This document shows, one piece after another, positions 50 through 20,580 of a DNA stretch of 21,353 nucleotides. Position 1 is the stretch's first letter; every line of letters starts with the position of its first letter. The notes beneath the pieces were generated by a model. The model ran no database searches and was not told the DNA's origin. It worked only from the letters and a program-made list of their open reading frames with translations. Both the position numbers and the translations under genes were made by a program. The DNA comes from a virus, in the UHGV virus genome UHGV-0143643; one strand, 5' to 3'.

Positions 50-829
50 ATGAAGATAATCTGCAGATTATTATTGGCGATGGCATGTTTGTGTCTGGCA
101 AACATATCCTGGGCTACTGTTTGTGCAAATAGTACTGGCGTAGCAGAAGATGAACACTATGATCTCTCAAATGTCTTTAATAGCACCAATAACCAGCCAG
201 GGCAGATTGTTGTTTTACCGGAAAAATCCGGCTGGGTAGGTGTGTCAGCAATTTGTCCACCCGGCACGCTGGTGAATTATACATACCGTAGTTATGTCAC
301 CAACTTTATTGTTCAGGAAACTATCGATAATTATAAATATATGCAATTAAATGATTATCTATTGGGTGCGATGAGTCTGGTTGATAGCGTGATGGATATT
401 CAATTTCCCCCGCAAAATTATATTCGTATGGGAACAGATCCTAACGTTTCGCAAAACCTTCCGTTCGGGGTGATGGATTCTCGTTTGATATTTCGTTTAA
501 AGGTTATTCGGCCCTTTATTAACATGGTGGAGATCCCCAGACAGGTGATGTTTACCGTGTATGTGACATCAACGCCTTACGATCCGTTGGTTACACCTGT
601 TTATACCATTAGTTTTGGTGGCCGGGTTGAAGTACCGCAAAACTGCGAATTAAATGCCGGGCAGATTGTTGAATTTGATTTTGGTGATATCGGCGCATCG
701 TTATTTAGTGCGGCAGGTCCGGGTAATCGACCTGCTGGTGTCAATACGACTCAACGTCGCTGGATTGACTTGAACACCCGCAGCAACATGCTGCAAAGTG
801 AAACCATGCGCCTTACGCACATTTCGTAA
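50..829 (+). CDS. sfmH: Fimbrial adhesin SfmH-like, N-terminal (signal peptide + lectin domain) portion. The frame looks authentic only to about 742; the tail to the stop at 829 is read-through into phage immunity-region DNA.
   Basis: Signal peptide MKIICRLLLAMACLCLANISWA; FimH-like layout (mature start TVCANSTG, VPQNCELNAGQIVEFDFGDIG resembling FimH GGCDVSARDVTVTLPDYPG). The C-terminus ...TMRLTHIS lacks the usual fimbrial terminal beta-strand, so it is truncated. Confidence 0.7.
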   Translation: MKIICRLLLAMACLCLANISWATVCANSTGVAEDEHYDLSNVFNSTNNQPGQIVVLPEKSGWVGVSAICPPGTLVNYTYRSYVTNFIVQETIDNYKYMQLNDYLLGAMSLVDSVMDIQFPPQNYIRMGTDPNVSQNLPFGVMDSRLIFRLKVIRPFINMVEIPRQVMFTVYVTSTPYDPLVTPVYTISFGGRVEVPQNCELNAGQIVEFDFGDIGASLFSAAGPGNRPAGVNTTQRRWIDLNTRSNMLQSETMRLTHIS

Positions 830-841
830 TGGTGATTGCAT
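743..841 (-). CDS. Cro-like XRE-family HTH protein, 5' portion (first 33 codons) separated from its 3' portion by the inversion junction; the uninterrupted minus-strand ORF runs 704..841
   Basis: Minus-strand ATG at 841-839 preceded by GGAGGG; translation MQSPLRNVRKAHGFTLQHVAAGVQVNPATLSRI is a textbook HTH N-terminus. After about 743 the frame continues into antisense sfmH sequence (DTSRSITRTCRTK, stop). Confidence 0.55.
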
Positions 842-855
842 ATGCCCTCCAAATA

Positions 856-932
856 TTGCGCGTTATGCATGTTATTTCACGCAATTATTTTGCGCAAGTT
901 GATTTGCTTATCACGCAATAAAGAAATGTAAT
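856..932. promoter_or_regulatory. Immunity-region operator/promoter cluster (O_R-like): divergent promoters for the cI-like gene (plus) and cro-like gene (minus) with repeated CGCAA/TTGCG half-sites
   Basis: Half-sites TTGCG 856-860, CGCAA 880-884, TTGCG 890-894, CGCAA 914-918 (perfect dyad CGCAA-N5-TTGCG at 880-894). Plus strand TTGCTT(904-909)-N17-TGTAAT(927-932) ends about 7 nt before the cI ATG (leaderless-type). Minus strand TTGCGC-N17-TAACAT lies upstream of the cro ATG. Confidence 0.5.
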
Positions 933-938
933 AAACGC

Positions 939-1631
939 ATGAACATAGGAAACCGAGTCAGACAACTTCGCCAAGCGAAGAACATGAAAATCGCCGATCT
1001 CGCTGAAGCAATAGGAGTAGATGCGGCGAACATCTCGCGCTTAGAAACGGGTAAGCAAAAACAATTTACCGAACAAACACTGAGTAATATTGCCAAGAGC
1101 TTAGGTGTTGATATTGCTGATCTCTTTACCTCTGCCCACAAAAGTAATACTGTATATAAAAACAGTAATAATGAGGATGTTGCGCAGGTGAAGGATGTGT
1201 TCCGTATTGAAATGCTGGATATCAGTGCCAGTGCGGGAAATGGCCTTATCCAGGGCGGTGATGTCATTGATGTGATTCATGCCATTGAATACAGAACTGA
1301 TAATGCTGTATCGATGTTTGGTGGACGACCAGCAAATCACATTAAAGTTATCAACGTTCGTGGGGACAGTATGTGTCCAACCATTGAGCCAGGAGATCTC
1401 ATCTTCGTTGATGTCAGCATCAATCAGTTTGATGGTGATGGTATATATGTCTTTGGTTTTGATGACAAAATATACGTTAAAAGACTTCAAATGATTCCTG
1501 ACAAACTGCTGGTGATTTCTGATAACCAGATTTACCGTGAATGGGGAATTACTAGCGAAAACGAACACCGATTCATGGTCTTTGGAAAGGTCTTAATCAG
1601 TCAGTCGCAAACCCTTAAGAGACATAATTAA
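939..1631 (+). CDS. Phage repressor, cI-like (N-terminal XRE HTH + C-terminal S24 LexA-like autopeptidase)
   Basis: HTH motif LRQAKNMKIADLAEAIGVDAANISRLETGK; S24 catalytic Ser in VRGDSMCPTI and Lys in YVKRL; sits at a divergent operator region. Confidence 0.9.
   Translation: MNIGNRVRQLRQAKNMKIADLAEAIGVDAANISRLETGKQKQFTEQTLSNIAKSLGVDIADLFTSAHKSNTVYKNSNNEDVAQVKDVFRIEMLDISASAGNGLIQGGDVIDVIHAIEYRTDNAVSMFGGRPANHIKVINVRGDSMCPTIEPGDLIFVDVSINQFDGDGIYVFGFDDKIYVKRLQMIPDKLLVISDNQIYREWGITSENEHRFMVFGKVLISQSQTLKRHN
1148..1167. promoter_or_regulatory. Near-consensus LexA (SOS) box TACTGTATATAAAAACAGTA, located inside the cI-like coding sequence
   Basis: Matches CTGT-N8-ACAG with TA flanks and an all-A/T core; palindromic ends ACTGT/ACAGT. 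Confidence 0.45.
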
Positions 1632-1650
1632 CCTCAATATCCCATCCATC

Positions 1651-1672
1651 GGCCACCGAAAGGTGGCTTTTT
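1651..1672 (+). terminator. Rho-independent terminator downstream of the cI-like gene
   Basis: GCCACC-GAAA-GGTGGC hairpin followed by TTTTT, 20 nt after the stop codon. Confidence 0.7.
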
Positions 1673-1685
1673 ACTACCTATAAAT

Positions 1686-1722
1686 TTGCATACCTCGCAA
1701 ATATCACTTACATATCTCGCAA
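1686..1722 (+). promoter_or_regulatory. pL-like early-left promoter with O_L-like operator half-sites
   Basis: TTGCAT(1686-1691)-N17-TACATA(1709-1714); CGCAA half-sites at 1696-1700 and 1718-1722 of the same type as next to the repressor start. Confidence 0.45.
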
Positions 1723-1886
1723 TTTAATTTTATCTTTTGTTCCAGACCAACTACAGGATTACAACAAAATCTGGTTGCAACACGGTGCATGTGTCGTAAG
1801 CAGTCAGTAAATGTCAAAAACGAACAGGCAGGACGCCCACGAAGTAGCCGCCTGGGGCATATGAAGTCCAGGATGATTCGTTAGCA

Positions 1887-1911
1887 ACAAAAAAGCGCCC
1901 TACAGGACGCT
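1887..1911 (-). terminator. Rho-independent terminator for the minus-strand gene 1951..2442
   Basis: On the minus strand GCGTCC-TGTA-GGGCGC hairpin followed by TTTTTT, about 40 nt downstream of the stop. Confidence 0.6.
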
Positions 1912-1950
1912 TAGCTCTTTAGCAATCTGGATATCCACAACAGTAGTAAT

Positions 1951-2442
1951 CTACAGATTGCCGTTAAGTTTTCTGGACAACTCCTCAATGGATGGAGGCG
2001 ATACGTAATCCGGATTTTTATTCATCAGAAACTTATTTTCACAGTGGAGGCACCTGCTTTTATGAAAAAGCTCATCTTCGCTAACCGGGAATGGTTGAAG
2101 TATCGATACTATCTTTTGTCCAAAACATTTTGGGCAAAGATGCATGGTTATGCTGCCACCGTTCACGATTACCTCCTTCGAGTATACAAAAGTACCCGAC
2201 TCAAGTTGGTTAAGGATATAGCCTTCCGTCTGAGCCTCAAAGTTTTCGAATTCTGCAATTTTAGCTTTGAGAGAAGCATTTATTTCTTGATAAGAGCCCA
2301 CCAGTTCAACGAGAGACACGCATTCGCGCTGAATAGACGCAAGCTTTGAGTTCAGCTCACCAATAGCCGCATTTACTTCAGCTTGAGTTTTTGCCTCGTT
2401 CATTAGTTTTGCAATCTGGGCTGTTTCACGAATAGCCGTCAT
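1951..2442 (-). CDS. Hypothetical moron protein: N-terminal coiled-coil plus C-terminal MqsA/YgiT-like zinc ribbon (CPKC ... CLHCENKFLMNK); convergent with the repressor gene. Alternative GTG start at 2466.
   Basis: The long ORF 1951..2730 has an Arg/Pro-rich low-complexity N-terminal extension that reads antisense through GC-rich structured DNA, so the start is placed at ATG 2442 (MTAIRET...). Heptad-like N-terminal half; C-terminal CxxC-N24-CxHCE motif resembles the MqsA N-terminal zinc domain (CPVC ... CVHCEESIMNK). Own terminator present. Confidence 0.75.
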   Translation of the reverse strand: MTAIRETAQIAKLMNEAKTQAEVNAAIGELNSKLASIQRECVSLVELVGSYQEINASLKAKIAEFENFEAQTEGYILNQLESGTFVYSKEVIVNGGSITMHLCPKCFGQKIVSILQPFPVSEDELFHKSRCLHCENKFLMNKNPDYVSPPSIEELSRKLNGNL

Positions 2443-2480
2443 TGCTGCCGTTAATTCAGCGATCACATTGAATACTCTTA

Positions 2481-2528
2481 TTGTTGTTGGGGATATCCAG
2501 ATTAACCGAATCCTTGTTGTTGGGGAAT
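2481..2528. repeat. Two direct copies of TTGTTGTTGGGGA (2481-2493 and 2516-2528; 35-bp period) immediately upstream of the minus-strand gene start
   Basis: Exact 13-bp direct repeat seen in the sequence; position suits a regulatory binding site. Confidence 0.5.
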
Positions 2529-2680
2529 AACCAGGTCCACCTCGCCTGATGTGGCTAAAAGCAGGCACATAACAGCTAAGTATTTTCAACCAGAGAGAAT
2601 CCTTAGCGTTGTGGTGAATGCGGCTCAGCGCACGCGGGTTAAGGTTGAGGCTGACAGTCGACCTTCTGTGGATACCCCCC

Positions 2681-2726
2681 CGCCTGGTGTGCAACCTTCG
2701 CCAGGCACCGGGAGGCACCCGGCACC
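2681..2726 (+). promoter_or_regulatory. GC-rich structured leader element (two stem-loops, triple GGCACC repeat) upstream of the terminator in the early-left transcript
   Basis: Hairpin GCCTGG(2682-2687)/CCAGGC(2701-2706); hairpin CCGGG(2708-2712)/CCCGG(2718-2722); GGCACC at 2704, 2714 and 2721. Confidence 0.3.
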
Positions 2727-2753
2727 ACAACTTTATGCTGTGTGTAGTCCTGG

Positions 2754-2800
2754 CGGTACCAGTTTGTACCCTTGCTTCCGGCTGGTACCGTCCTTTTTTG
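2754..2800 (+). terminator. Strong rho-independent terminator in the early-left leader, upstream of the YfdP-like gene
   Basis: CGGTACCAG(2754-2762) pairs with CTGGTACCG(2782-2790), followed by TCCTTTTTTG; three GGTACC-type palindromes allow alternative pairings. Confidence 0.6.
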
Positions 2801-2936
2801 CAAAACAGAGAAGAGCATCACCGGACGACGGGCTCATAACCCAATCCATCCGGGCGGCTGCCACCGCAGGTGTTCTTCTCTGTTTTGTGGAGAAACCAAC
2901 CGACCTTGCAGGGTCGATATGATGAGGAGCAGCAAA

Positions 2937-3299
2937 ATGGCTAGCGAACGCAGTACTGATGTGCAGGCATTTATCGGGGAGCTGGACGGCGGCGTATTTG
3001 AAACCAAAATCGGCGCAGTTCTCAGTGAGGTCGCTTCCGGTGTGATGAACACGAAAACCAAAGGGAAGGTCTCACTCAATCTGGAAATCGAACCGTTTGA
3101 TGAGAACCGTGTGAAAATCAAACACAAACTCTCATATGTTCGCCCAACTAACCGCGGGAAAATTTCCGAAGAAGACACCACCGAAACGCCGATGTATGTC
3201 AATCGCGGTGGTCGCCTGACTATTCTGCAGGAAGACCAGGGACAATTACTGACTCTTGCCGGTGAACCTGACGGAAAACTCCGCGCAGCAGGTCATTAA
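2937..3299 (+). CDS. Phage early protein, YfdP-like (120 aa)
   Basis: ATG 2937 preceded by GAGGAG; the longer ORF from 2772 is an upstream extension through the terminator. Size and order match the CPS-53 yfdP-yfdT block as recalled. Confidence 0.75.
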   Translation: MASERSTDVQAFIGELDGGVFETKIGAVLSEVASGVMNTKTKGKVSLNLEIEPFDENRVKIKHKLSYVRPTNRGKISEEDTTETPMYVNRGGRLTILQEDQGQLLTLAGEPDGKLRAAGH

Positions 3300-3364
3300 T
3301 ATCGTTTTTAATAAACTGATTATTTCTCTCATCACTGAATATTTTTATATAGTGAGGACTTATT

Positions 3365-4189
3365 ATGTCTCAGAACTTAGACGCAACCGCAATTAATCAA
3401 ATCCATGCCCTTATTTCTGCTCAGGGTGTTAATGAAATTATCAGTAAGATTGGTGCCGATGCTGTGGCATTGCCTGAGAATTTCCGCATTCATGATCTGG
3501 AAAAATTTAATTTAAATCGCTTCCGTTTCCGTGGTGCGCTTTCCACTGCCAGCATCGATGACTTTACCCGTTATTCTAAAGATCTTGCAGATGAAGGCAC
3601 CCGCTGCTTTATCGATGCCGATAATATGCGAGCCGTCAGTGTGCTTAACCTGGGTACTATTGATGAACCAGGTCACGCAGATAACACTGCCACTCTCAAA
3701 CTGAAAAAGACAGCACCGTTCTCTGCTCTGTTGTCTGTTAACGGCGAGCGTAACTCCCAGAAGTCACTGGCAGAATGGATCGAAGACTGGGCCGACTACC
3801 TTGTGGGCTTTGATGCTAATGGTGACGCCATTCAAGCAACAAAAGCGGCTGCGGCAGTCCGTAAAATCACGATTGAAGCAAACCAGACCGCTGATTTTGA
3901 AGATAATGACTTCAGCGGCAAACGCTCCCTGATGGAGTCTGTCGAAGCGAAGACCAAAGACATTATGCCAGTGGCATTTGAATTTAAATGCGTTCCGTTT
4001 GAAGGTCTGAAAGAACGTCCGTTTAAATTACGCCTCAGCATTATCACTGGCGATCGTCCTGTACTGGTTCTGCGCATTATTCAGCTGGAAGCGGTGCAGG
4101 AAGAAATGGCTAACGAATTTCGTGATCTGCTTGTTGAGAAATTCAAAGACAGCAAAGTAGAAACCTTTATTGGTACTTTCACCGCCTGA
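3365..4189 (+). CDS. Phage early protein, YfdQ-like (DUF2303-type, 274 aa)
   Basis: Clean 274-aa ORF in operon context; family assignment from memory. Confidence 0.8.
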
Positions 4190-4316
4190 TTTCATTACTG
4201 CAAATGCCCCTGCGGGGGCATTTATGGAAACGTAATTAACTCAATAATCACCGGATGGTGAGGGCTTCCTTTTACCAGAATTCAGCGCGGTGCAGTGCAT
4301 ATACGTGGAGAACAAA

Positions 4317-4853
4317 ATGTCATTTATTAAAACTTTTTCCGGGAAGCATTTTTATTATGACAAGATAAATAAAGACGACATCGATATTAACGATATCGCG
4401 GTTTCCCTTTCAAATATCTGTCGCTTTGCCGGTCATCTTTCGCACTTCTACAGCGTCGCCCAACATGCGGTTCTTTGCAGCCAGCTGGTGCCGCAGGAAT
4501 TTGCTTTTGAAGCGTTAATGCATGATGCAACAGAAGCGTATTGCCAGGATATTCCCGCTCCACTGAAACGCCTTCTTCCTGACTATAAACGGATGGAAGA
4601 AAAAATAGACGCCGTAATCCGTGAGAAATACGGGTTACCCCCGGTTATGAGCACGCCTGTGAAATATGCCGATCTCATCATGCTGGCAACCGAACGCCGC
4701 GATCTCGGGCTTGATGATGGCTCTTTCTGGCCTGTACTGGAAGGCATCCCGGCAACAGAGATGTTCAACGTGATTCCACTGGCACCGGGTCATGCCTACG
4801 GGATGTTTATGGAACGTTTTAACGATTTATCGGAGTTACGCAAATGCGCATGA
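4317..4853 (+). CDS. HD-domain phosphohydrolase, YfdR-like 5'-deoxynucleotidase (178 aa)
   Basis: Start MSFIKTF with GGAGAA RBS (the ORF track starts 27 nt earlier); H...HD motif (AGHLSHF ... LMHDATEAY). Confidence 0.8.
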   Translation: MSFIKTFSGKHFYYDKINKDDIDINDIAVSLSNICRFAGHLSHFYSVAQHAVLCSQLVPQEFAFEALMHDATEAYCQDIPAPLKRLLPDYKRMEEKIDAVIREKYGLPPVMSTPVKYADLIMLATERRDLGLDDGSFWPVLEGIPATEMFNVIPLAPGHAYGMFMERFNDLSELRKCA

Positions 4854-5206
4854 ATGTTTTCGAAATGGAAGGGTTTCTTCGCGGGAAATGTGTACCGCGA
4901 GATCTGAAAGTGAATGAAACAAATGCTGAGTACCTGTTACGTAAATTCGACGCGCTTGAAGCTAAATGTGCGGCACTGGAAAACAAAATAATACCAGTGT
5001 CAGCTGAACTGCCACCAGCAAATGAAAGTGTTCTGTTATTTGATGCTAACGGAGAAGGCTGGCTGATTGGCTGGCGTTCTCTCTGGTACACCTGGGGACA
5101 AAAAGAAACCGGAGAATGGCAGTGGACATTTCAGGTCGGGGACCTTGAAAACGTCAATATCACTCACTGGGCAGTAATGCCAAAAGCACCGGAGGCTGGA
5201 GCATAA
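4844..5206 (+). CDS. Phage early protein, YfdS-like (120 aa)
   Basis: Start overlaps the upstream stop; ORF is translationally coupled on both sides. Confidence 0.75.
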   Translation: MRMNVFEMEGFLRGKCVPRDLKVNETNAEYLLRKFDALEAKCAALENKIIPVSAELPPANESVLLFDANGEGWLIGWRSLWYTWGQKETGEWQWTFQVGDLENVNITHWAVMPKAPEAGA

Positions 5207-5511
5207 TGACCACATTTACCAATAAAGAACTGATTAAAGAAATCAAAGAACGAATCAGCAGCCTAGAGGTTCGAGACGATATTGAGCGCCGTGCTTATGA
5301 AATCGCACTCGTATCTCTGGAAGTAGAGCCAGATGAACGCGAAGCCTATGAATTATTCATGGAAAAGCGTTTCGGTGACTTAGTAGATCGTCGGAGAGCA
5401 AAAAACGGCGATAACGAATACATGGCATGGGATATGACTCTCGGTTGGATCGTCTGGCAGCAACGAGCTGTTATCCATTTTTCAACAATGACACAGCAAG
5501 AGGTGAAATAA
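5206..5511 (+). CDS. Phage early protein, YfdT-like (101 aa)
   Basis: TAATG overlap with the upstream gene and with the downstream xis-like start. Confidence 0.75.
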   Translation: MTTFTNKELIKEIKERISSLEVRDDIERRAYEIALVSLEVEPDEREAYELFMEKRFGDLVDRRRAKNGDNEYMAWDMTLGWIVWQQRAVIHFSTMTQQEVK

Positions 5512-5882
5512 TGGAGCCATACAGCCTCACACTCGATGAGGCCTGTCAGTTTCTTCAGATATCCAGACCAACCGCCACCAACTGGATACGAACAGGCCGC
5601 CTACAGGCAACACGTAAAGATCCAACCAAGCCAAAATCTCCTTACCTCACAACACGGCAAGCCTGCATTGCGGCGCTTCAGTCTCCGCTGCATACTGTCC
5701 AGGTGAGCGCGGGTGATGGCATAACAGAGGAAAGAAAATGTCACTCTTCCGCAGAGGTGAAATATGGTACGCCTCGTACTCGCTCCCGGGCGGGAAGCGA
5801 ATTAAGGAGTCTCTTGGCACAAAGGACAAGCGGCAAGCTCAGGAGTTGCACGACAAGCGAAAAGCAGAACTCTGGCGAGTAG
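5511..5882 (+). CDS. Excisionase / AlpA-like HTH protein; the 3' end is uncertain and the frame overlaps the integrase start by about 145 nt
   Basis: [31 protein letters not shown] is an AlpA/Xis-type HTH; position immediately upstream of int. Confidence 0.5.
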
Positions 5883-6901
5883 AAAAGCTAGGGGATTTAC
5901 CTGATGTCACTTTTGAAGAGGCCTGCCTAAGATGGCTTGAGGAAAAGGCTGATAAAAAATCTCTCGATTCAGATAAAAGCCGGATTGAGTTCTGGCTTGA
6001 ACATTTTGAGGGTATAAGGCTTAAAGATATCTCGGAGGCAAAGATTTACTCTGCTGTAAGCAGAATGCATAACAGAAAGACGAAAGAAATATGGAAACAG
6101 AAAGTTCGGGCCGCCATCAGGAAAGGTAAAGAACCGCCTGTTTATGAACCAAAGCCAGTATCAACTCAGACAAAGGCAAAGCATCTTGCCATGATAAAGG
6201 CCATTCTCCGTGCTGCAGAACGCGACTGGAAGTGGCTGGAAAAAGCGCCTGTCATCAAGATACCAGCGGTCAGAAACAAGCGAGTCAGATGGCTGGAAAA
6301 GGAGGAAGCAAAACGCCTTATTGATGAGTGCCCCGAACCACTGAAATCTGTCGTCAAGTTTGCGCTGGCAACTGGTCTGAGAAAGTCGAACATCATAAAT
6401 CTGGAATGGCAACAAATCGACATGCAGCGACGAGTTGCCTGGGTGAATCCAGAAGAGAGCAAATCAAACCGCGCCATTGGTGTGGCGCTGAACGATACCG
6501 CCTGTAAAGTGTTGCGTGATCAAATAGGCAAGCATCACAAATGGGTGTTTGTACATACCAAGGCGGCTAAGCGAGCAGATGGAACATCAACGCCTGCGGT
6601 CAGGAAGATGCGCATCGACAGCAAGACATCATGGCTATCAGCTTGTCGTCGTGCAGGAATTGAAGATTTCCGTTTCCATGACCTCAGACACACCTGGGCA
6701 AGCTGGCTGATTCAGTCAGGCGTCCCATTATCAGTGCTTCAGGAAATGGGCGGATGGGAGTCCATAGAAATGGTTCGTAGGTATGCTCACCTTGCGCCTA
6801 ATCATTTGACAGAGCATGCGAGGAAAATAGACGACATTTTTGGTGATAATGTCCCAAATATGTCCCACTCTGGAATTATGGAGGATATAAAGAAGGCGTA
6901 A
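5738..6901 (+). CDS. int: Tyrosine-type site-specific integrase (lambda/DLP12 IntD-like, 387 aa)
   Basis: N-terminus [34 protein letters not shown]; catalytic-region motifs [10 protein letters not shown] and RRYAHL; stop 16 nt from the tRNA 3' end. Confidence 0.95.
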
Positions 6902-6916
6902 CTGATTGAATTGTAA

Positions 6917-6993
6917 TGGCGCGCCCTGCAGGATTCGAACCTGCGGCCCACGACTTAGAAGGTCGTTGCTCTATCCAACTGAGCTAAGGGCGC
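6917..6993 (-). tRNA. argU: tRNA-Arg (anticodon UCU), argU-type; its 3' end abuts the integrase gene (prophage attachment site)
   Basis: Cloverleaf read by hand: acceptor GCGCCCU/AGGGCGC, D-arm GCUC/GAGC, anticodon stem ACGAC/GUCGU with loop CUUCUAA, T-arm GCAGG-UUCGAAU-CCUGC, encoded CCA. Confidence 0.95.
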
Positions 6994-7235
6994 GTTGATA
7001 CCGCAATGCGGTGTAATCGCGTGAATTATACGGTCAACCCTTGCTGAGTCAATGGCTTTTGATCTGGTTGCTGAACAAGTGAACGACCGCGTCTGATTTT
7101 CTGATTTATTTCGCTATAGCGGCAAACAAACGCACACCGCTGCGCGTCTGAATCAAGAAAACCCGTATTTTCATGTATCAAAGTACAATTTACCGCCCTA
7201 ACGGAAAATTGTCCGCTCCTATGAGACTGGTAACT

Positions 7236-7868
7236 ATGAAACCAACGTCGGTGATCATTATGGATACTCATCCTATCATCAGAATGTCTATTGAAGTTCT
7301 GTTGCAAAAAAACAGTGAATTGCAGATTGTCCTGAAAACGGATGATTACCGCATAACCATCGATTATCTCCGAACCCGTCCTGTTGATTTAATCATTATG
7401 GATATAGACTTGCCCGGAACAGACGGTTTTACCTTCCTGAAAAGGATCAAACAAATCCAGAGCACAGTGAAAGTATTATTTTTATCATCGAAATCAGAAT
7501 GCTTTTATGCTGGCAGAGCGATACAAGCTGGTGCTAACGGTTTTGTCAGTAAATGCAATGATCAGAATGATATTTTTCATGCCGTTCAGATGATCCTCTC
7601 CGGATACACTTTTTTTCCCAGCGAAACGCTCAACTATATAAAAAGCAATAAATGTAGTACGAATAGTTCAACGATCACTGTGCTATCTAATCGTGAAGTG
7701 ACGATATTACGTTATCTGGTCAGCGGATTATCTAATAAAGAAATTGCCGATAAGTTATTACTTAGCAATAAAACAGTTAGCGCGCATAAATCTAATATTT
7801 ATGGCAAGCTAGGTTTGCATTCAATTGTAGAGCTCATCGACTACGCCAAATTATATGAATTAATATAA
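7236..7868 (+). CDS. fimZ: LuxR/NarL-family response regulator FimZ (210 aa)
   Basis: Receiver domain with DLIIMDIDLPGTDG; C-terminal LuxR HTH (LSNREVTILRYLVSGLSNKEIADKL); recognised as FimZ. Start set at MKPTSVIIMD; the ORF track begins 63 nt upstream. Confidence 0.95.
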   Translation: MKPTSVIIMDTHPIIRMSIEVLLQKNSELQIVLKTDDYRITIDYLRTRPVDLIIMDIDLPGTDGFTFLKRIKQIQSTVKVLFLSSKSECFYAGRAIQAGANGFVSKCNDQNDIFHAVQMILSGYTFFPSETLNYIKSNKCSTNSSTITVLSNREVTILRYLVSGLSNKEIADKLLLSNKTVSAHKSNIYGKLGLHSIVELIDYAKLYELI

Positions 7869-7870
7869 TA

Positions 7871-8386
7871 TTAATTATAATTGATCATAAATATCGCATC
7901 CGCTTTCGCCACACCTGGCCGAACACCGCTGGCTAACGCTCGATAATTGGCAAAAAAGTTTAGTGTGACATTGCCATTTGCATCAACTTCCTCAGTCGGG
8001 CTCGCCTCCCCCAGTGCGAGCCGGGAGCGATCGCTATTACGTAATTCGATGGCGACGGTTTGTGCCATTGCGGGATCATCCAGAGCCAGCAGGTTGGCAT
8101 CAGATGCCGGCGTTCCCGTAAATAAAATCGCAACTGAACCCGGAGGACATCCCTCCAGCCGCAGGCTAAAAGGGACGAGTGCCGTGGTATCGCCAGCGTT
8201 CAGTAGTTGTGTCGTAGGCCATCTGCCTAAATCTACCGTCTTATCAATATCCGCTGTGTTTACGGTACAGGAGAAATCAACAACGTTACCGTGCAAATTG
8301 ATATTAATCGTTCCTAAAGGGTCAGCTGCCCATCCACTGGAACTCCACAGTAACCCGCAGAAACAGCTAAAGAATACTCTTCTCAT
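7871..8386 (-). CDS. sfmF: Minor fimbrial subunit SfmF (171 aa)
   Basis: Signal peptide MRRVFFSCFCGLLWSSSGWA; fimbrial C-terminus ...AIFMINYN; convergent with fimZ. The longer ORF to 8581 overlaps the sfmH 3' part and was trimmed. Confidence 0.9.
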   Translation of the reverse strand: MRRVFFSCFCGLLWSSSGWAADPLGTININLHGNVVDFSCTVNTADIDKTVDLGRWPTTQLLNAGDTTALVPFSLRLEGCPPGSVAILFTGTPASDANLLALDDPAMAQTVAIELRNSDRSRLALGEASPTEEVDANGNVTLNFFANYRALASGVRPGVAKADAIFMINYN

Positions 8387-8396
8387 TCTCCGTACC

Positions 8397-8711
8397 TCAT
8401 TGATAATCGACGCGTAAATACCCCAGCGCGCTAAACGGCGCTTCGGTCGGTTTTTGACCGGTAATACTGATAGGCCAGGCGCGAAGTGTGACATTGGCTG
8501 CCGCAGCTGCATCCAGACGGAAAGGAATAACGCTATTGAGATCGTTAGGCGTGATCGGCGTATCGTTCTGATCGGCGACAATAAAACCTAAATCCTGATT
8601 GTCCGACACCATCGCCTGACCAGAAACGGCACTGGCTTCCAGACGCATTGTTAAATAAGCCTGCGCAGCAACATTCGTACATTTGACCGCAATGCTCTTG
8701 GTTTGCGGCAT
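8397..8711 (-). CDS. sfmH: Fimbrial adhesin SfmH-like, C-terminal pilin-domain portion, detached from the 5' portion at 50..742
   Basis: KSIAVKCTNVAAQAYL resembles FimH LTVYCAKSQNLGYYL; ends with the fimbrial-type terminal strand ...GYLRVDYQ; sits directly upstream of sfmF as in the sfm operon. Confidence 0.75.
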   Translation of the reverse strand: MPQTKSIAVKCTNVAAQAYLTMRLEASAVSGQAMVSDNQDLGFIVADQNDTPITPNDLNSVIPFRLDAAAAANVTLRAWPISITGQKPTEAPFSALGYLRVDYQ

Positions 8712-14310: not shown

Positions 14311-15408
14311 TTAGAACTGGTAAACCAGACCTACAGCAACGATGTCATCAGTGCTTACACCGAGTGCTTTAGTGAAGTCATTTTTGTCAAGCAGGTTGAT
14401 TTTGTAATCAACGAAAGTAGACATATTTTTGTTGAAGTAATAGGTTGCACCTACATCAACATATTTGACTAAGTCCTGATCGCCCCATACTCCAAGATCC
14501 TTACCTTTAGATTGCAGGTAAGCAACGGACGGACGCAGACCGAAATCGAACTGATATTGTGCAACAGCTTCGAAGTTTTGAGCTTTATTAGCAACGAAGT
14601 GATCAGCAAATACAGTCATATTCTGGGTTTCAGAATAGGTAGTGGCCAGGTAAATGTTGTTAGCGTCATATTTCAGACCTGCGGCCCAAACTTCTGCATT
14701 TTTACCGGAAGCAAATACTTCAGGAAGAACTTTCCCTGCATTAACTTGAGTGTCGGTACGATCAGATTTCGCATAAGTTGCACCGATACCGAATCCTTCG
14801 TATTCATAGGTAGCAGAGAAACCGAAGCCATCACCGTTACCTTCGGTGTAGTTATCGAAATCGCTACGATCGTTTTTGCCTTGGTACTGAGCAGCAAAGT
14901 TCAGACCATCAACCAGACCAAAGAAGTCGTTGTTACGATAGGTTGCAACACCAGTGGTGCGACCAGTCATGAACACATCTGTTTGGGTCCAGGTATCGCC
15001 ACCGAATTCTGGCAGAACGTCAGTCCACGCACCGATGTCGTATGCTACACCGTAGTTACGGCCGTAATCGATTGAGCCGTAGTCACCGAATTTCAGGCCT
15101 GCAAATGCAAGACGGGTTTTGTCTTTGGAGGAACCTTGAGATTCAGCGCGGTTGCCTTTGAATTCATATTCCCACTGACCGAAACCAGTCAGCTGATCGT
15201 TGATTTGGGTTTCGCCTTTGAAGCCCAGACGAACATAAGTAGTATCACCATCATCTGCATCGTTAGAGGAAAAGTAGTGCTTGGCATTAACTTTCCCGTA
15301 CAGATCCAGCTTGTTACTGTCTTTATTATAAATTTCAGCTGCCTGAGCAGACATCGCCATCAGTACTGATGCAGCTACAGCAGAAATTGCCACTGTTAAT
15401 TTTTTCAT
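14311..15408 (-). CDS. nmpC: Outer-membrane general porin NmpC (OmpC/OmpF family), intact 365-aa precursor
   Basis: Signal peptide [23 protein letters not shown]; porin hallmarks including C-terminal ...VAVGLVYQF; sits between Q and the holin, opposite strand. Confidence 0.95.
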
Positions 15409-19996: not shown

Positions 19997-20580
19997 TGGC
20001 ATTCAGAATGAGTGAACAACCACGGACCATAAAAATTTATAATCTGCTGGCCGGAACTAATGAATTTATTGGTGAAGGTGATGCATATATTCCGCCTCAT
20101 ACAGGTCTGCCAGCAAACAGTACCGATATTGCACCGCCAGATATTCCGGCAGGCTTCGTGGCTGTTTTCAACAGTGATGAGGCATCGTGGCATCTCGTTG
20201 AAGACCATCGGGGTAAAACGGTTTATGACGTAGCGTCAGGGGACGCGTTATTTATTTCTGAACTCGGTCCGTTACCGGAAAATGTTACCTGGTTATCGCC
20301 GGAAGGGGAGTTTCAGAAGTGGAACGGCACAGCCTGGGTGAAAGATGCAGAAGCAGAAAAACTGTTCCGGATCCGAGAGGCGGAAGAAACAAAAAACAGC
20401 CTGATGCAGGTAGCCAGTGAGCATATTGCGCCACTTCAGGATGCTGTGGATCTGGAAATCGCAACGGAGGAAGAAACCTCATTGCTGGAAGCCTGGAAAA
20501 AGTATCGGGTGTTGCTGAACCGTGTTGATACATCAACTGCACCTGATATTGAGTGGCCTACGAACCCTGTCAGGGAGTAA
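19996..20580 (+). CDS. Tail fibre assembly protein (Tfa family, 194 aa)
   Basis: TAATG coupling to the tail-fibre fragment; Tfa-like sequence ([43 protein letters not shown]...). Confidence 0.9.

Follow-up and report, generated by a model that had tools for sequence, protein, structure and literature searches.

An STnc100/PasD-family RNA module in the early-left operon of an SfV/e14-like prophage, probably released as a small terminated RNA

The element at the early-left locus and its structure

The window, that is the whole stretch of 21,353 nucleotides of UHGV virus genome UHGV-0143643 analysed here, is E. coli-like chromosome with an SfV/e14-like lambdoid prophage at tRNA-Arg(UCU). The early-left genes of the prophage run from yfdP through yfdQ, a yfdR-like gene, xis and int to tRNA-Arg(UCU), and between the repressor gene cI and yfdP lies the element studied here, a group of hairpins followed by an intrinsic terminator. 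The original prediction, made from the letters alone, had flagged 2681-2800 and offered cis-acting antitermination, an attenuation switch or, as a fallback, a small terminated RNA of its own. Its sequence features were recovered, its placement of the promoter and its alternative pairings were not, and the fallback is the reading supported, because the element belongs to the STnc100/PasD family of prophage small RNAs (sRNAs). What was flagged makes up the 3' two-thirds of a structured small RNA of about 190-220 nt, and the element is a promoter-less, operon-embedded variant of this known family. With a probability of about 0.68, we read it as a structured RNA module of the STnc100/PasD family that is released as a small terminated RNA. 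Its parts and immediate flanks are:

2540-2572, plus strand: conserved hairpin block CCACCUCGCCUGAUGUGGCUAAAAGCAGGCACA upstream of the module, common to SfV, e14 and phiES15
2578-2801, plus strand: whole STnc100-type RNA module (span of the RF02076 alignment), with the structured core from 2608
2608-2616, plus strand: 5' strand of the closing helix P1, GUUGUGGUG, which pairs with CACCACAAC at 2723-2731 and encloses the whole domain
2619-2632, plus strand: P2 hairpin UGCG-GCUCAG-CGCA, from sequence comparison
2641-2647, plus strand: 5' strand of the pseudoknot, AAGGUUG, which pairs with the P4 loop CAACCUU
2682-2706, plus strand: P4 hairpin GCCUGGUG/CGCCAGGC, from folding, whose loop 2692-2698 is the 3' strand of the pseudoknot
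2708-2722, plus strand: P5 hairpin CCGGG-AGGCA-CCCGG, from folding
2732-2751, plus strand: single-stranded spacer and candidate seed, from alignment by eye
2752-2799, plus strand: intrinsic terminator, from folding, with an 11-bp stem (2752-2762/2782-2792), a 19-nt loop and C plus U6
2801-2887, plus strand: long conserved hairpin that separates the terminator from yfdP, with 24-nt arms of 83% complementarity (inverted repeat I2)

The RNA domain covers about 125 nt (2608-2731) and is composed of the closing helix P1, the hairpins P2, P4 and P5, and a pseudoknot. Reading of the sequence and folding both returned the two predicted stem-loops, one with arms at 2682-2689 and 2699-2706 (P4) and the other, CCGGG/CCCGG, with arms at 2708-2712 and 2718-2722 (P5), and the GGCACC repeat is indeed present three times (2704-2709, 2714-2719 and 2721-2726). 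The terminator with its T6 tract is real too, with C plus T6 at 2793-2799, and its stem is of 11 bp instead of the 9 bp claimed; the expected gap of about 135 nt to the first gene came out as 137 nt, with the ATG of yfdP at 2937. Folding predicted both hairpins and the terminator with a minimum free energy z-score of -2.08, which is modest alone. The flagged span caught the 3' two-thirds of the RNA and overlooked its 5' half (2608-2680), which holds the closing helix, the first hairpin and one strand of the pseudoknot.

The comparative evidence places these structures far beyond chance. When relatives were compared for compensatory changes, both the P4 stems and the pseudoknot were found to covary, and at the P4 position 42 distinct complementary stem sequences were counted in 108 unique copies. 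The partners of the pseudoknot change together (AAGGCUGG/UCAGCCUU, AGACUGACAAA/UUUGUCAGUCU, UGGUUAAU/GUUAACCA, GAGCUGGC/GCCAGCUU and CCAGUC/GACUGG), with at least 10 different pairs among relatives; the best run of pairing averaged 6.1 when a copy was matched with its own loop and 4.3 when it was matched with a foreign one, and 61% of own and 9% of foreign loops gave 6 bp or more. The whole-domain column pair count on a MAFFT alignment was blurred by the misaligned variable middle, so anchored scripts were used for the P4 and pseudoknot counts; a column count of the pseudoknot on alignment A2, a cruder method, agrees, with compensatory changes in 4/6 pairs. RNA-level selection acts on the plus strand, because the U-G and G-U pairs are compatible with that strand only. 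The pseudoknot is missing from the RF02076 model as printed, and as a new part of the fold it suggests a function of the 5' domain beyond base pairing.

The other helices vary less. The GUGGUG/CACCAC core of P1 is present in all copies. Within the subfamily the two strands of its extension change together, being GUU/AAC in ST64B and the window and AUU/AAU in phiES15, with no significant covariation of the extension family-wide. At the P2 position canonical copies have CCCCU/AGGGG and mEp460 has GCGCA/UGCGC. P5 does not vary in the retrieved copies, by ascertainment, since the 21-mer search pattern included P5 and the P1 core and their invariance is in part a product of it; both cores can vary, as is seen in mEp460 (CCGG...CCGG) and in the variants of K-12 e14. 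The spacer UGCUGUGUGUAGUC is kept in ST64B and phiES15 despite their different terminators.

Family membership and the K-12 copy

The region 2578-2801 aligns end to end with the Rfam model RF02076 STnc100 (40.3 bits, E 2.2e-7, model positions 1-206 of 206; cmscan in E-value mode), so the covariance search proposed with the original prediction did return a family. The match is visible only in this mode, and Rfam at the gathering threshold gave no match at the element site. Membership is shown by the profile and the common architecture. The GUGGUG/CACCAC closing helix (2611-2616/2723-2728) and the CCGGG-AGGCA-CCCGG hairpin are the same as in copies that score 73-177 bits, the variable hairpin with an upstream-paired loop is present (P4, with 2641-2647 pairing to 2692-2698), and a terminator follows soon after the domain, the T-run of the window starting 65 nt past P1. 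A sigma-70 promoter of its own about 6 nt before the closing helix, as canonical members have, is missing from the window.

The 21-mer CCGGGAGGCACCCGGCACCAC occurs in at least 120 viral contig stretches, and the relatives tested among them gave 73-99 bits on RF02076; STnc100 copies in named phages gave 52-177 bits. Phage BLAST showed that 2620-2756 is common to Salmonella ST64B and Cronobacter phiES15 at 84-86% identity. The flanking genes and terminators of these two copies differ from those of the window, and the three terminators are mutually unrelated. STnc100 and PasD are prophage sRNAs, PasD having been recovered by Hfq RIL-seq and confirmed by northern blotting, and the RNAs of the family accumulate as discrete terminated species (bioRxiv 10.64898/2026.05.13.724894). 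The function of STnc100 has been called unclear in the literature.

Canonical copies are autonomous small genes, because they have their own promoter at a fixed position before P1 and their own terminator. The promoter, TTGA(A/C)A-N17/18-TAAATT, ends exactly 6 nt before P1, and a score of at least 9/12 at this position (the scoring adds small bonuses) was reached by 26/83 unique copies and by 0 of the GAAUGCGG subfamily, to which the window belongs. An intrinsic terminator lies within 160 nt of P1 in 85/108 unique copies, at 42-80 nt in 77. Canonical copies are found either after stx or, as in Fels-1, Stx1 phage, a Klebsiella phage, IHE3034 and HK639, in the interval from Q to the lysis genes. 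The window subfamily, with the first hairpin GAAUGCGG..., is always located between the repressor side and the early-left genes; this site is occupied in SfV, ST64B, phiES15, phiNP, mEp460 and e14, and the genes downstream of it vary. No positionally conserved promoter was found across the subfamily (ST64B, phiES15, mEp460 and the loci L014 and L091). The hairpin 2801-2887 is kept in ST64B, mEp460 and e14 and travels with the terminator, before xisE in e14 and before yfdP in mEp460 and Stx phages, and it may be a site of processing or translation control.

Some observations on the late-region copies are recorded here. Canonical STnc100 genes are often in tandem in the Q-lysis interval, with 2-3 copies each with its own promoter and terminator, as in L012, L020, L046, L088, L112, L130 (Fels-1) and L132, and in HK639 and a Klebsiella phage an isrJ-like RNA immediately follows Q. 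That STnc100 might serve PF03589-type Q as its recognition site was considered and rejected, since SfV has an ordinary pR'-tR' right after Q and no late-region STnc100. The published sRNA svsR of a related prophage lies within cI, at the 3' end of that gene, and has no relation to the element.

The element is present in 2111/5426 complete E. coli genomes, including K-12, where the copy lies in e14, is annotated as the coding sequence ymfH (locus L225, 3534-3845) and is 93% identical to the window. Term-seq of MG1655 mapped RNA 3' ends at 1201195(-), the last U of the e14 terminator tract, at 1201257(-), 4 nt past P1, and at 1201423(-), in the upstream hairpin block at about window position 2568 (PMC7815308). 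The 62-nt spacing of the first two agrees exactly with the e14 sequence. The terminator of the element is used in vivo in the e14 orthologue, because a 3' end lies at the end of its U-tract. The end at 1201423(-) is the strongest of the region in K-12, on the 3' side of the hairpin block 2540-2572, with no U-tract after it. A single SOS-linked iModulon contains intE, xisE, ymfH and ymfJ (PMC12132413); this co-regulation fits one unit driven by the early-left promoter pL with read-through on derepression, and is no proof of it.

Several points weigh against the small-RNA reading. The score of 40.3 bits is below the gathering score of 47 for RF02076. P2 is unlike the family consensus, and in the window subfamily the register of this hairpin is not certain. 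No complementary target for the putative seed 2732-2751 was found in the window, and a pseudoknotted, nearly invariant domain of 125 nt is atypical of a plain base-pairing sRNA. Association with Hfq and action in trans are known for PasD and STnc100 from the literature and would extend to the window subfamily by analogy. No promoter was found for the subfamily, yet the RNA is seen in uninduced K-12. Finally, the orientation is the same as that of the downstream genes in 105/107 informative copies, which leaves room for a role in cis.

The early-left setting and the alternative explanations

The alternatives have to be weighed against the map of the early-left arm, whose other features are:

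939-1631: cI, CI-type repressor gene (PHROG/Pfam matches)
1651-1668: cI terminator (promoter/terminator scan)
1686-1700 and 1708-1722, plus strand: OL operators TTGCATACCTCGCAA and TTACATATCTCGCAA, directly after the cI terminator
1708-1713 (-35, TTACAT) and 1731-1736 (-10, TATCTT), plus strand: putative pL, whose hexamers did not pass a simple scan
1951-2466: convergent gene, PHROG 1244, unknown function
2937-3299, plus strand: yfdP, the first protein gene 3' of the element (PHROG/Pfam matches; RefSeq annotation of the sister prophage)
3365-4189: yfdQ, DUF2303 gene (PHROG/Pfam matches)
5738-6901: integrase gene int (PHROG/Pfam matches)
6920-6993, minus strand: tRNA-Arg(UCU) (tRNA match in an Rfam-type scan)

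The order repressor, leader, yfdP/yfdQ and further genes, xis and int is common to the sister prophage of IHE3034, SfV, SfII, SfIV, ST64B, phiNP and mEp460. None of these annotated relatives has an N gene, and no lambda-type N homologue was found in the window by PHROG and Pfam searches, so the premise of an early-left operon with a strong terminator and no N gene was correct, as was the statement that no N-like open reading frame (ORF) precedes the terminator (ORF 2618-2839 has no PHROG match). The promoter was predicted next to the element, and there the prediction failed: a scan of 1600-3400 returned no sigma-70-like promoter, and the CI operators and pL lie at 1686-1736, about 870 nt upstream. 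This placement of OL and pL is based on the CI operator motif, which recurs just after the cI terminator; the operators carry the same TTGC-N7-GCAA-type motif as those upstream of cI at 874-918, related phages have an analogous arrangement, and the hexamers are putative.

Some further features of the window stand beside this map. Compared with the usual gene order of such a prophage, 741-8710 is inverted; one of the breakpoints, which are at 740/741 and 8710/8711, falls within cro and the other within a fimbrial gene. On this segment lie cI, the entire early-left arm, int, tRNA-Arg, fimZ and sfmF, together with the 5' part of cro and a portion of sfmH, and the remainder of the prophage, from 8711, holds ymfL/cII-like, replication, PerC, KilA-N, DUF968 and lysis genes. 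Queries across either junction gave no single match of at least 80% coverage in the 5426 complete E. coli genomes. The convergent gene 1951-2466 is flanked by a 26-nt inverted repeat (85% complementary; 1924-1949 and 2478-2503), the 13-nt direct repeat TTGTTGTTGGGGA occurs twice just past it (2481-2493 and 2514-2526), and the gene resembles a cassette that has been inserted or can invert. In the late region a porin gene (Porin_1, nmpC/ompD-like; 14311-15408, minus strand) lies on the opposite strand between the DUF968 and lysozyme genes and looks like a moron, and a full-length match to the Rfam IS009 RNA (225.8 bits) is found in the right arm at 20339-20537 on the plus strand.

That the sequence is a protein gene, either the YmfH-like ORF 2611-2922 (ymfH in K-12) or ORF 2618-2839, is scarcely credible. 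RefSeq does list ymfH in K-12 and a 'hypothetical protein' in many genomes, and the translation of about 2794-2902 has a match to PHROG 33599, of unknown function. Against this, the annotation of the IHE3034 sister prophage marks the ORF as frameshifted, close relatives differ by single-base indels in the T-tract and in P5 of e14, variation tracks base-pairing rather than codons, the YmfH-like frame runs across an intrinsic terminator used in vivo, and ORF 2618-2839 matches nothing in Pfam either. K-12 ymfH, and the 'hypothetical protein' called at this place in thousands of genomes, overlap the structured RNA, its terminator and the hairpin after it and probably do not encode proteins, and the widespread ymfH sequence would be a misannotated structured RNA of the STnc100/PasD family. 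A better case, and still a very improbable one, can be made for a cis-acting processive antiterminator like the put RNAs of HK022, whose read-through depends on the zinc-binding domain of the polymerase beta' subunit; the nascent RNA would bind RNA polymerase and take it through 2752-2799 and later terminators. It would account for the missing N gene, for a complex and highly conserved RNA immediately before a terminator, for the near-constant co-orientation with downstream genes and for the co-regulation of e14 xis/int with upstream genes. However, the element has no similarity to putL or putR of HK022 or to the putL-like RNA of HK639: the put motifs CGAACGGCGCG...AAACCAUGCGUCGG...CGGCAAU (two stems) are absent from 2578-2801 in a comparison with HK022 and the annotated HK639 RNA. 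The putL site lies directly 3' of its promoter (PMC9378689), and the element, from about 2608, is some 870 nt away from the pL -10 (1731-1736). Canonical copies have constitutive-looking promoters before genes of the lysis/toxin region, where antitermination would presumably be harmful. The RNAs of the family are discrete terminated species, and efficient antitermination is hard to reconcile with the K-12 3' end at the terminator of the element itself. The element is very probably not the antitermination device, nor a new antitermination site.

An attenuator or riboswitch-like leader, in which the folded domain and the terminator would both exclude an antiterminator and a ligand, a protein or translation would decide on read-through into yfdP...int, is unlikely, though less so than the put-like alternative. 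A pseudoknotted, aptamer-like domain followed by a terminator and genes is the classic leader layout, many riboswitch leaders were first catalogued as sRNAs, copies are co-oriented with the genes downstream, and the P4 3' strand CGCCAGG can pair over 7 bp with CCUGGCG at 2750-2756 in the window and in e14. This pairing is missing in phiES15 and L121. Over 47 distinct copies the P4 3' strand paired with its own spacer and terminator 5' arm at -5.7 kcal/mol and with foreign ones at -4.7 kcal/mol, and the terminator 5' arm paired with its own domain at -9.9 and with foreign domains at -9.3 kcal/mol, in a simple test that a subtle switch could escape. The three GGTACC palindromes, for which mutually exclusive pairings had been proposed, are the terminator arms (2756-2761 and 2785-2790) and a loop segment; neither ST64B nor phiES15 has them, the terminators of these homologues being of unrelated sequence. 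The genes downstream are likewise unrelated across copies, and no conserved alternative pairing between domain and terminator was found. The strongest of the alternatives, possible and still clearly less probable than the reading given above, keeps the same RNA module and makes it an autonomous lysogen gene transcribed from a weak local promoter, AAAGCA-N17-TATTTT at 2556-2586, instead of pL. In its favour, RNA 3' ends are found in uninduced MG1655, the strong 3' end at the upstream hairpin suggests that transcripts from upstream stop short of the element, canonical family members are autonomous, and the candidate of SfV and e14, AAGACA-N17-TATTTT, matches 8/12 hexamer positions. On the other hand, the -35 of the window matches only 2/6 positions, the promoter scan was empty, the subfamily has no promoter at a conserved position, and a Reg-Seq start upstream of ymfH appeared in one replicate of one condition only.

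Under the preferred reading of a released STnc100/PasD-type RNA, the RNA would be made by transcription from pL after derepression, and a weak local promoter might add a low level. Most transcripts would end at 2799 and release a discrete small RNA, which by analogy with Hfq-bound PasD and STnc100 could act in trans with the seed 2732-2751, and the 5' domain may confer stability or bind a protein. The terminator would double as a barrier like lambda tL1, so that yfdP...xis-int would be expressed by read-through only.

The pL leader and the comparison with known systems

The pL transcript has to cross about 1.2 kb of untranslated sequence before yfdP, partly antisense to the convergent gene 1951-2466. 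Protection of this transcript from Rho and from the terminator at 2799 is plausible because of this long leader. The leader contains two features that are better candidates for antitermination than the element:

1818-1884, plus strand: LE1, a 67-nt three-way-junction RNA (covariance model, 92.7 bits)
1820-1824/1877-1881, 1827-1829/1835-1837 and 1851-1855/1868-1872, plus strand: LE1 helices P1, P2 and P3
1914-1925, plus strand: boxA-like GCUCUUUAGCAA, which most relatives have as GCUCUUUAACAA, immediately 3' of a hairpin at 1893-1912

The structure of LE1 was evaluated in 44 sequences, in which 95% of cells are paired and 10/14 pairs show compensatory changes; 0/500 shuffles attained the observed score, and slid controls paired at 22-44%. 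The LE1 18-mer GACGCCCACGAAGTAGCC is present in at least 120 viral contig stretches, and the core is near-invariant in copies retrieved by the 18-nt core pattern. LE1 nearly always lies a few tens of nt (12-80) after strong repressor-controlled promoters with quite different operators, and the annotated phages that carry it have no N and place it between cI and genes of the kil/recE type. Over 100 N-less phages, across Enterobacterales, have LE1 behind pL. The covariance model found exactly one copy per LE1-bearing locus, always on the pL side, with no second, putR-like copy on the pR side in 37 loci and no match in HK022 or HK639, and LE1 had no Rfam match. It is present in e14 of K-12, and according to BLAST its phages have hosts in Escherichia, Shigella, Salmonella, Citrobacter, Klebsiella, Pantoea, Yersinia, Pectobacterium, Providencia and Aeromonas. 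mEp460 is without LE1 and carries a more divergent domain, GUUGUGGUGAAUGCGCAGG...GCCGGAGAUCAGCACCGGUCACCACAAC (L005, 2853-2993), before the same terminator and yfdP leader. A strict terminator finder detected an intrinsic terminator in 20/78 LE1 loci, and this finder missed the long-loop terminator of the window itself. A likeness of LE1 and of the element to the put RNAs of HK022 and HK639 through the strings CGAAC and CAGGAUGA proved superficial: the GG of GGAUGA in LE1 is the 3' strand of a covarying stem, and AGGAU in putL is a hairpin loop.

The boxA-like sequence, which we take to resemble the boxA of rrn operons and lambda, is found at a fixed offset in 16-20/93 unique LE1 loci. In the sense of the pL transcript it reads GCTCTTTAGCAA (GCTCTTTAACAA in most relatives), and wherever it occurs the terminator of the convergent gene accompanies it.

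LE1 is undescribed and is a candidate cis-acting antiterminator or anti-Rho element, and that it provides the protection of the leader is our hypothesis. A possible but not a likely extension is that N-less phages of the SfV/e14/ST64B/Gifsy type rely on RNA-only control of the early-left operon, with LE1 as a new put-like or Rho-blocking class and the STnc100-type RNA as a by-product, a notion we rank a little below the local promoter. If this were true, LE1 would carry polymerase as far as xis-int, past a leader of more than 1.1 kb that is not translated, past the terminator at 2799 and past the stops beyond it, and the STnc100-type RNA would come from polymerases left unmodified. The question of how N-less lambdoid phages pass their early terminators is now directed at LE1, in K-12 e14 as well. 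The newest material, that is LE1 and the pseudoknot in the STnc100 fold, adjoins the finding on the element.

As compared to lambda, the map of repressor, pL, leader, terminator, early-left genes, xis and int resembles the N/nutL/tL1 arrangement, with the terminator as a tL1-like barrier, but there is no N gene and no boxB, and the only boxA-like sequence lies 700 nt upstream of the element at 1914-1925. HK022 and HK639 are likewise N-less and carry a structured early-left RNA (putL/putR or putL-like) upstream of terminators. Their RNAs differ from the element in sequence and profile and have two stems instead of a five-helix pseudoknotted domain, whereas the element lies away from the promoter, is followed by a terminator that is used, and belongs to a family that is also autonomous in late regions. 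The ymfH region of e14 is orthologous in sequence and has the same context (cohE/ymfK, ymfJ, ymfI, element, xisE and intE); there the element is annotated as a protein gene, P5 has a deletion and a substitution, and yfdPQR are missing downstream. The closest likeness in kind is to STnc100 and PasD, with which the element shares the full-length profile alignment, the GUGGUG/CACCAC helix, the invariant CCGGGAGGCACCCGG hairpin, a variable hairpin with an upstream-pairing loop, a short spacer before an intrinsic terminator, prophage residence and the orientation of the neighbour genes. It differs from them in its first hairpin (UGCG/CGCA instead of CCCCU/AGGGG), in the absence of the TTGAMA-N17/18-TAAATT promoter, in the conserved UGCUGUGUGUAGUC spacer, and in its place in the early-left (pL) operon, where canonical members lie between Q and the lysis genes.

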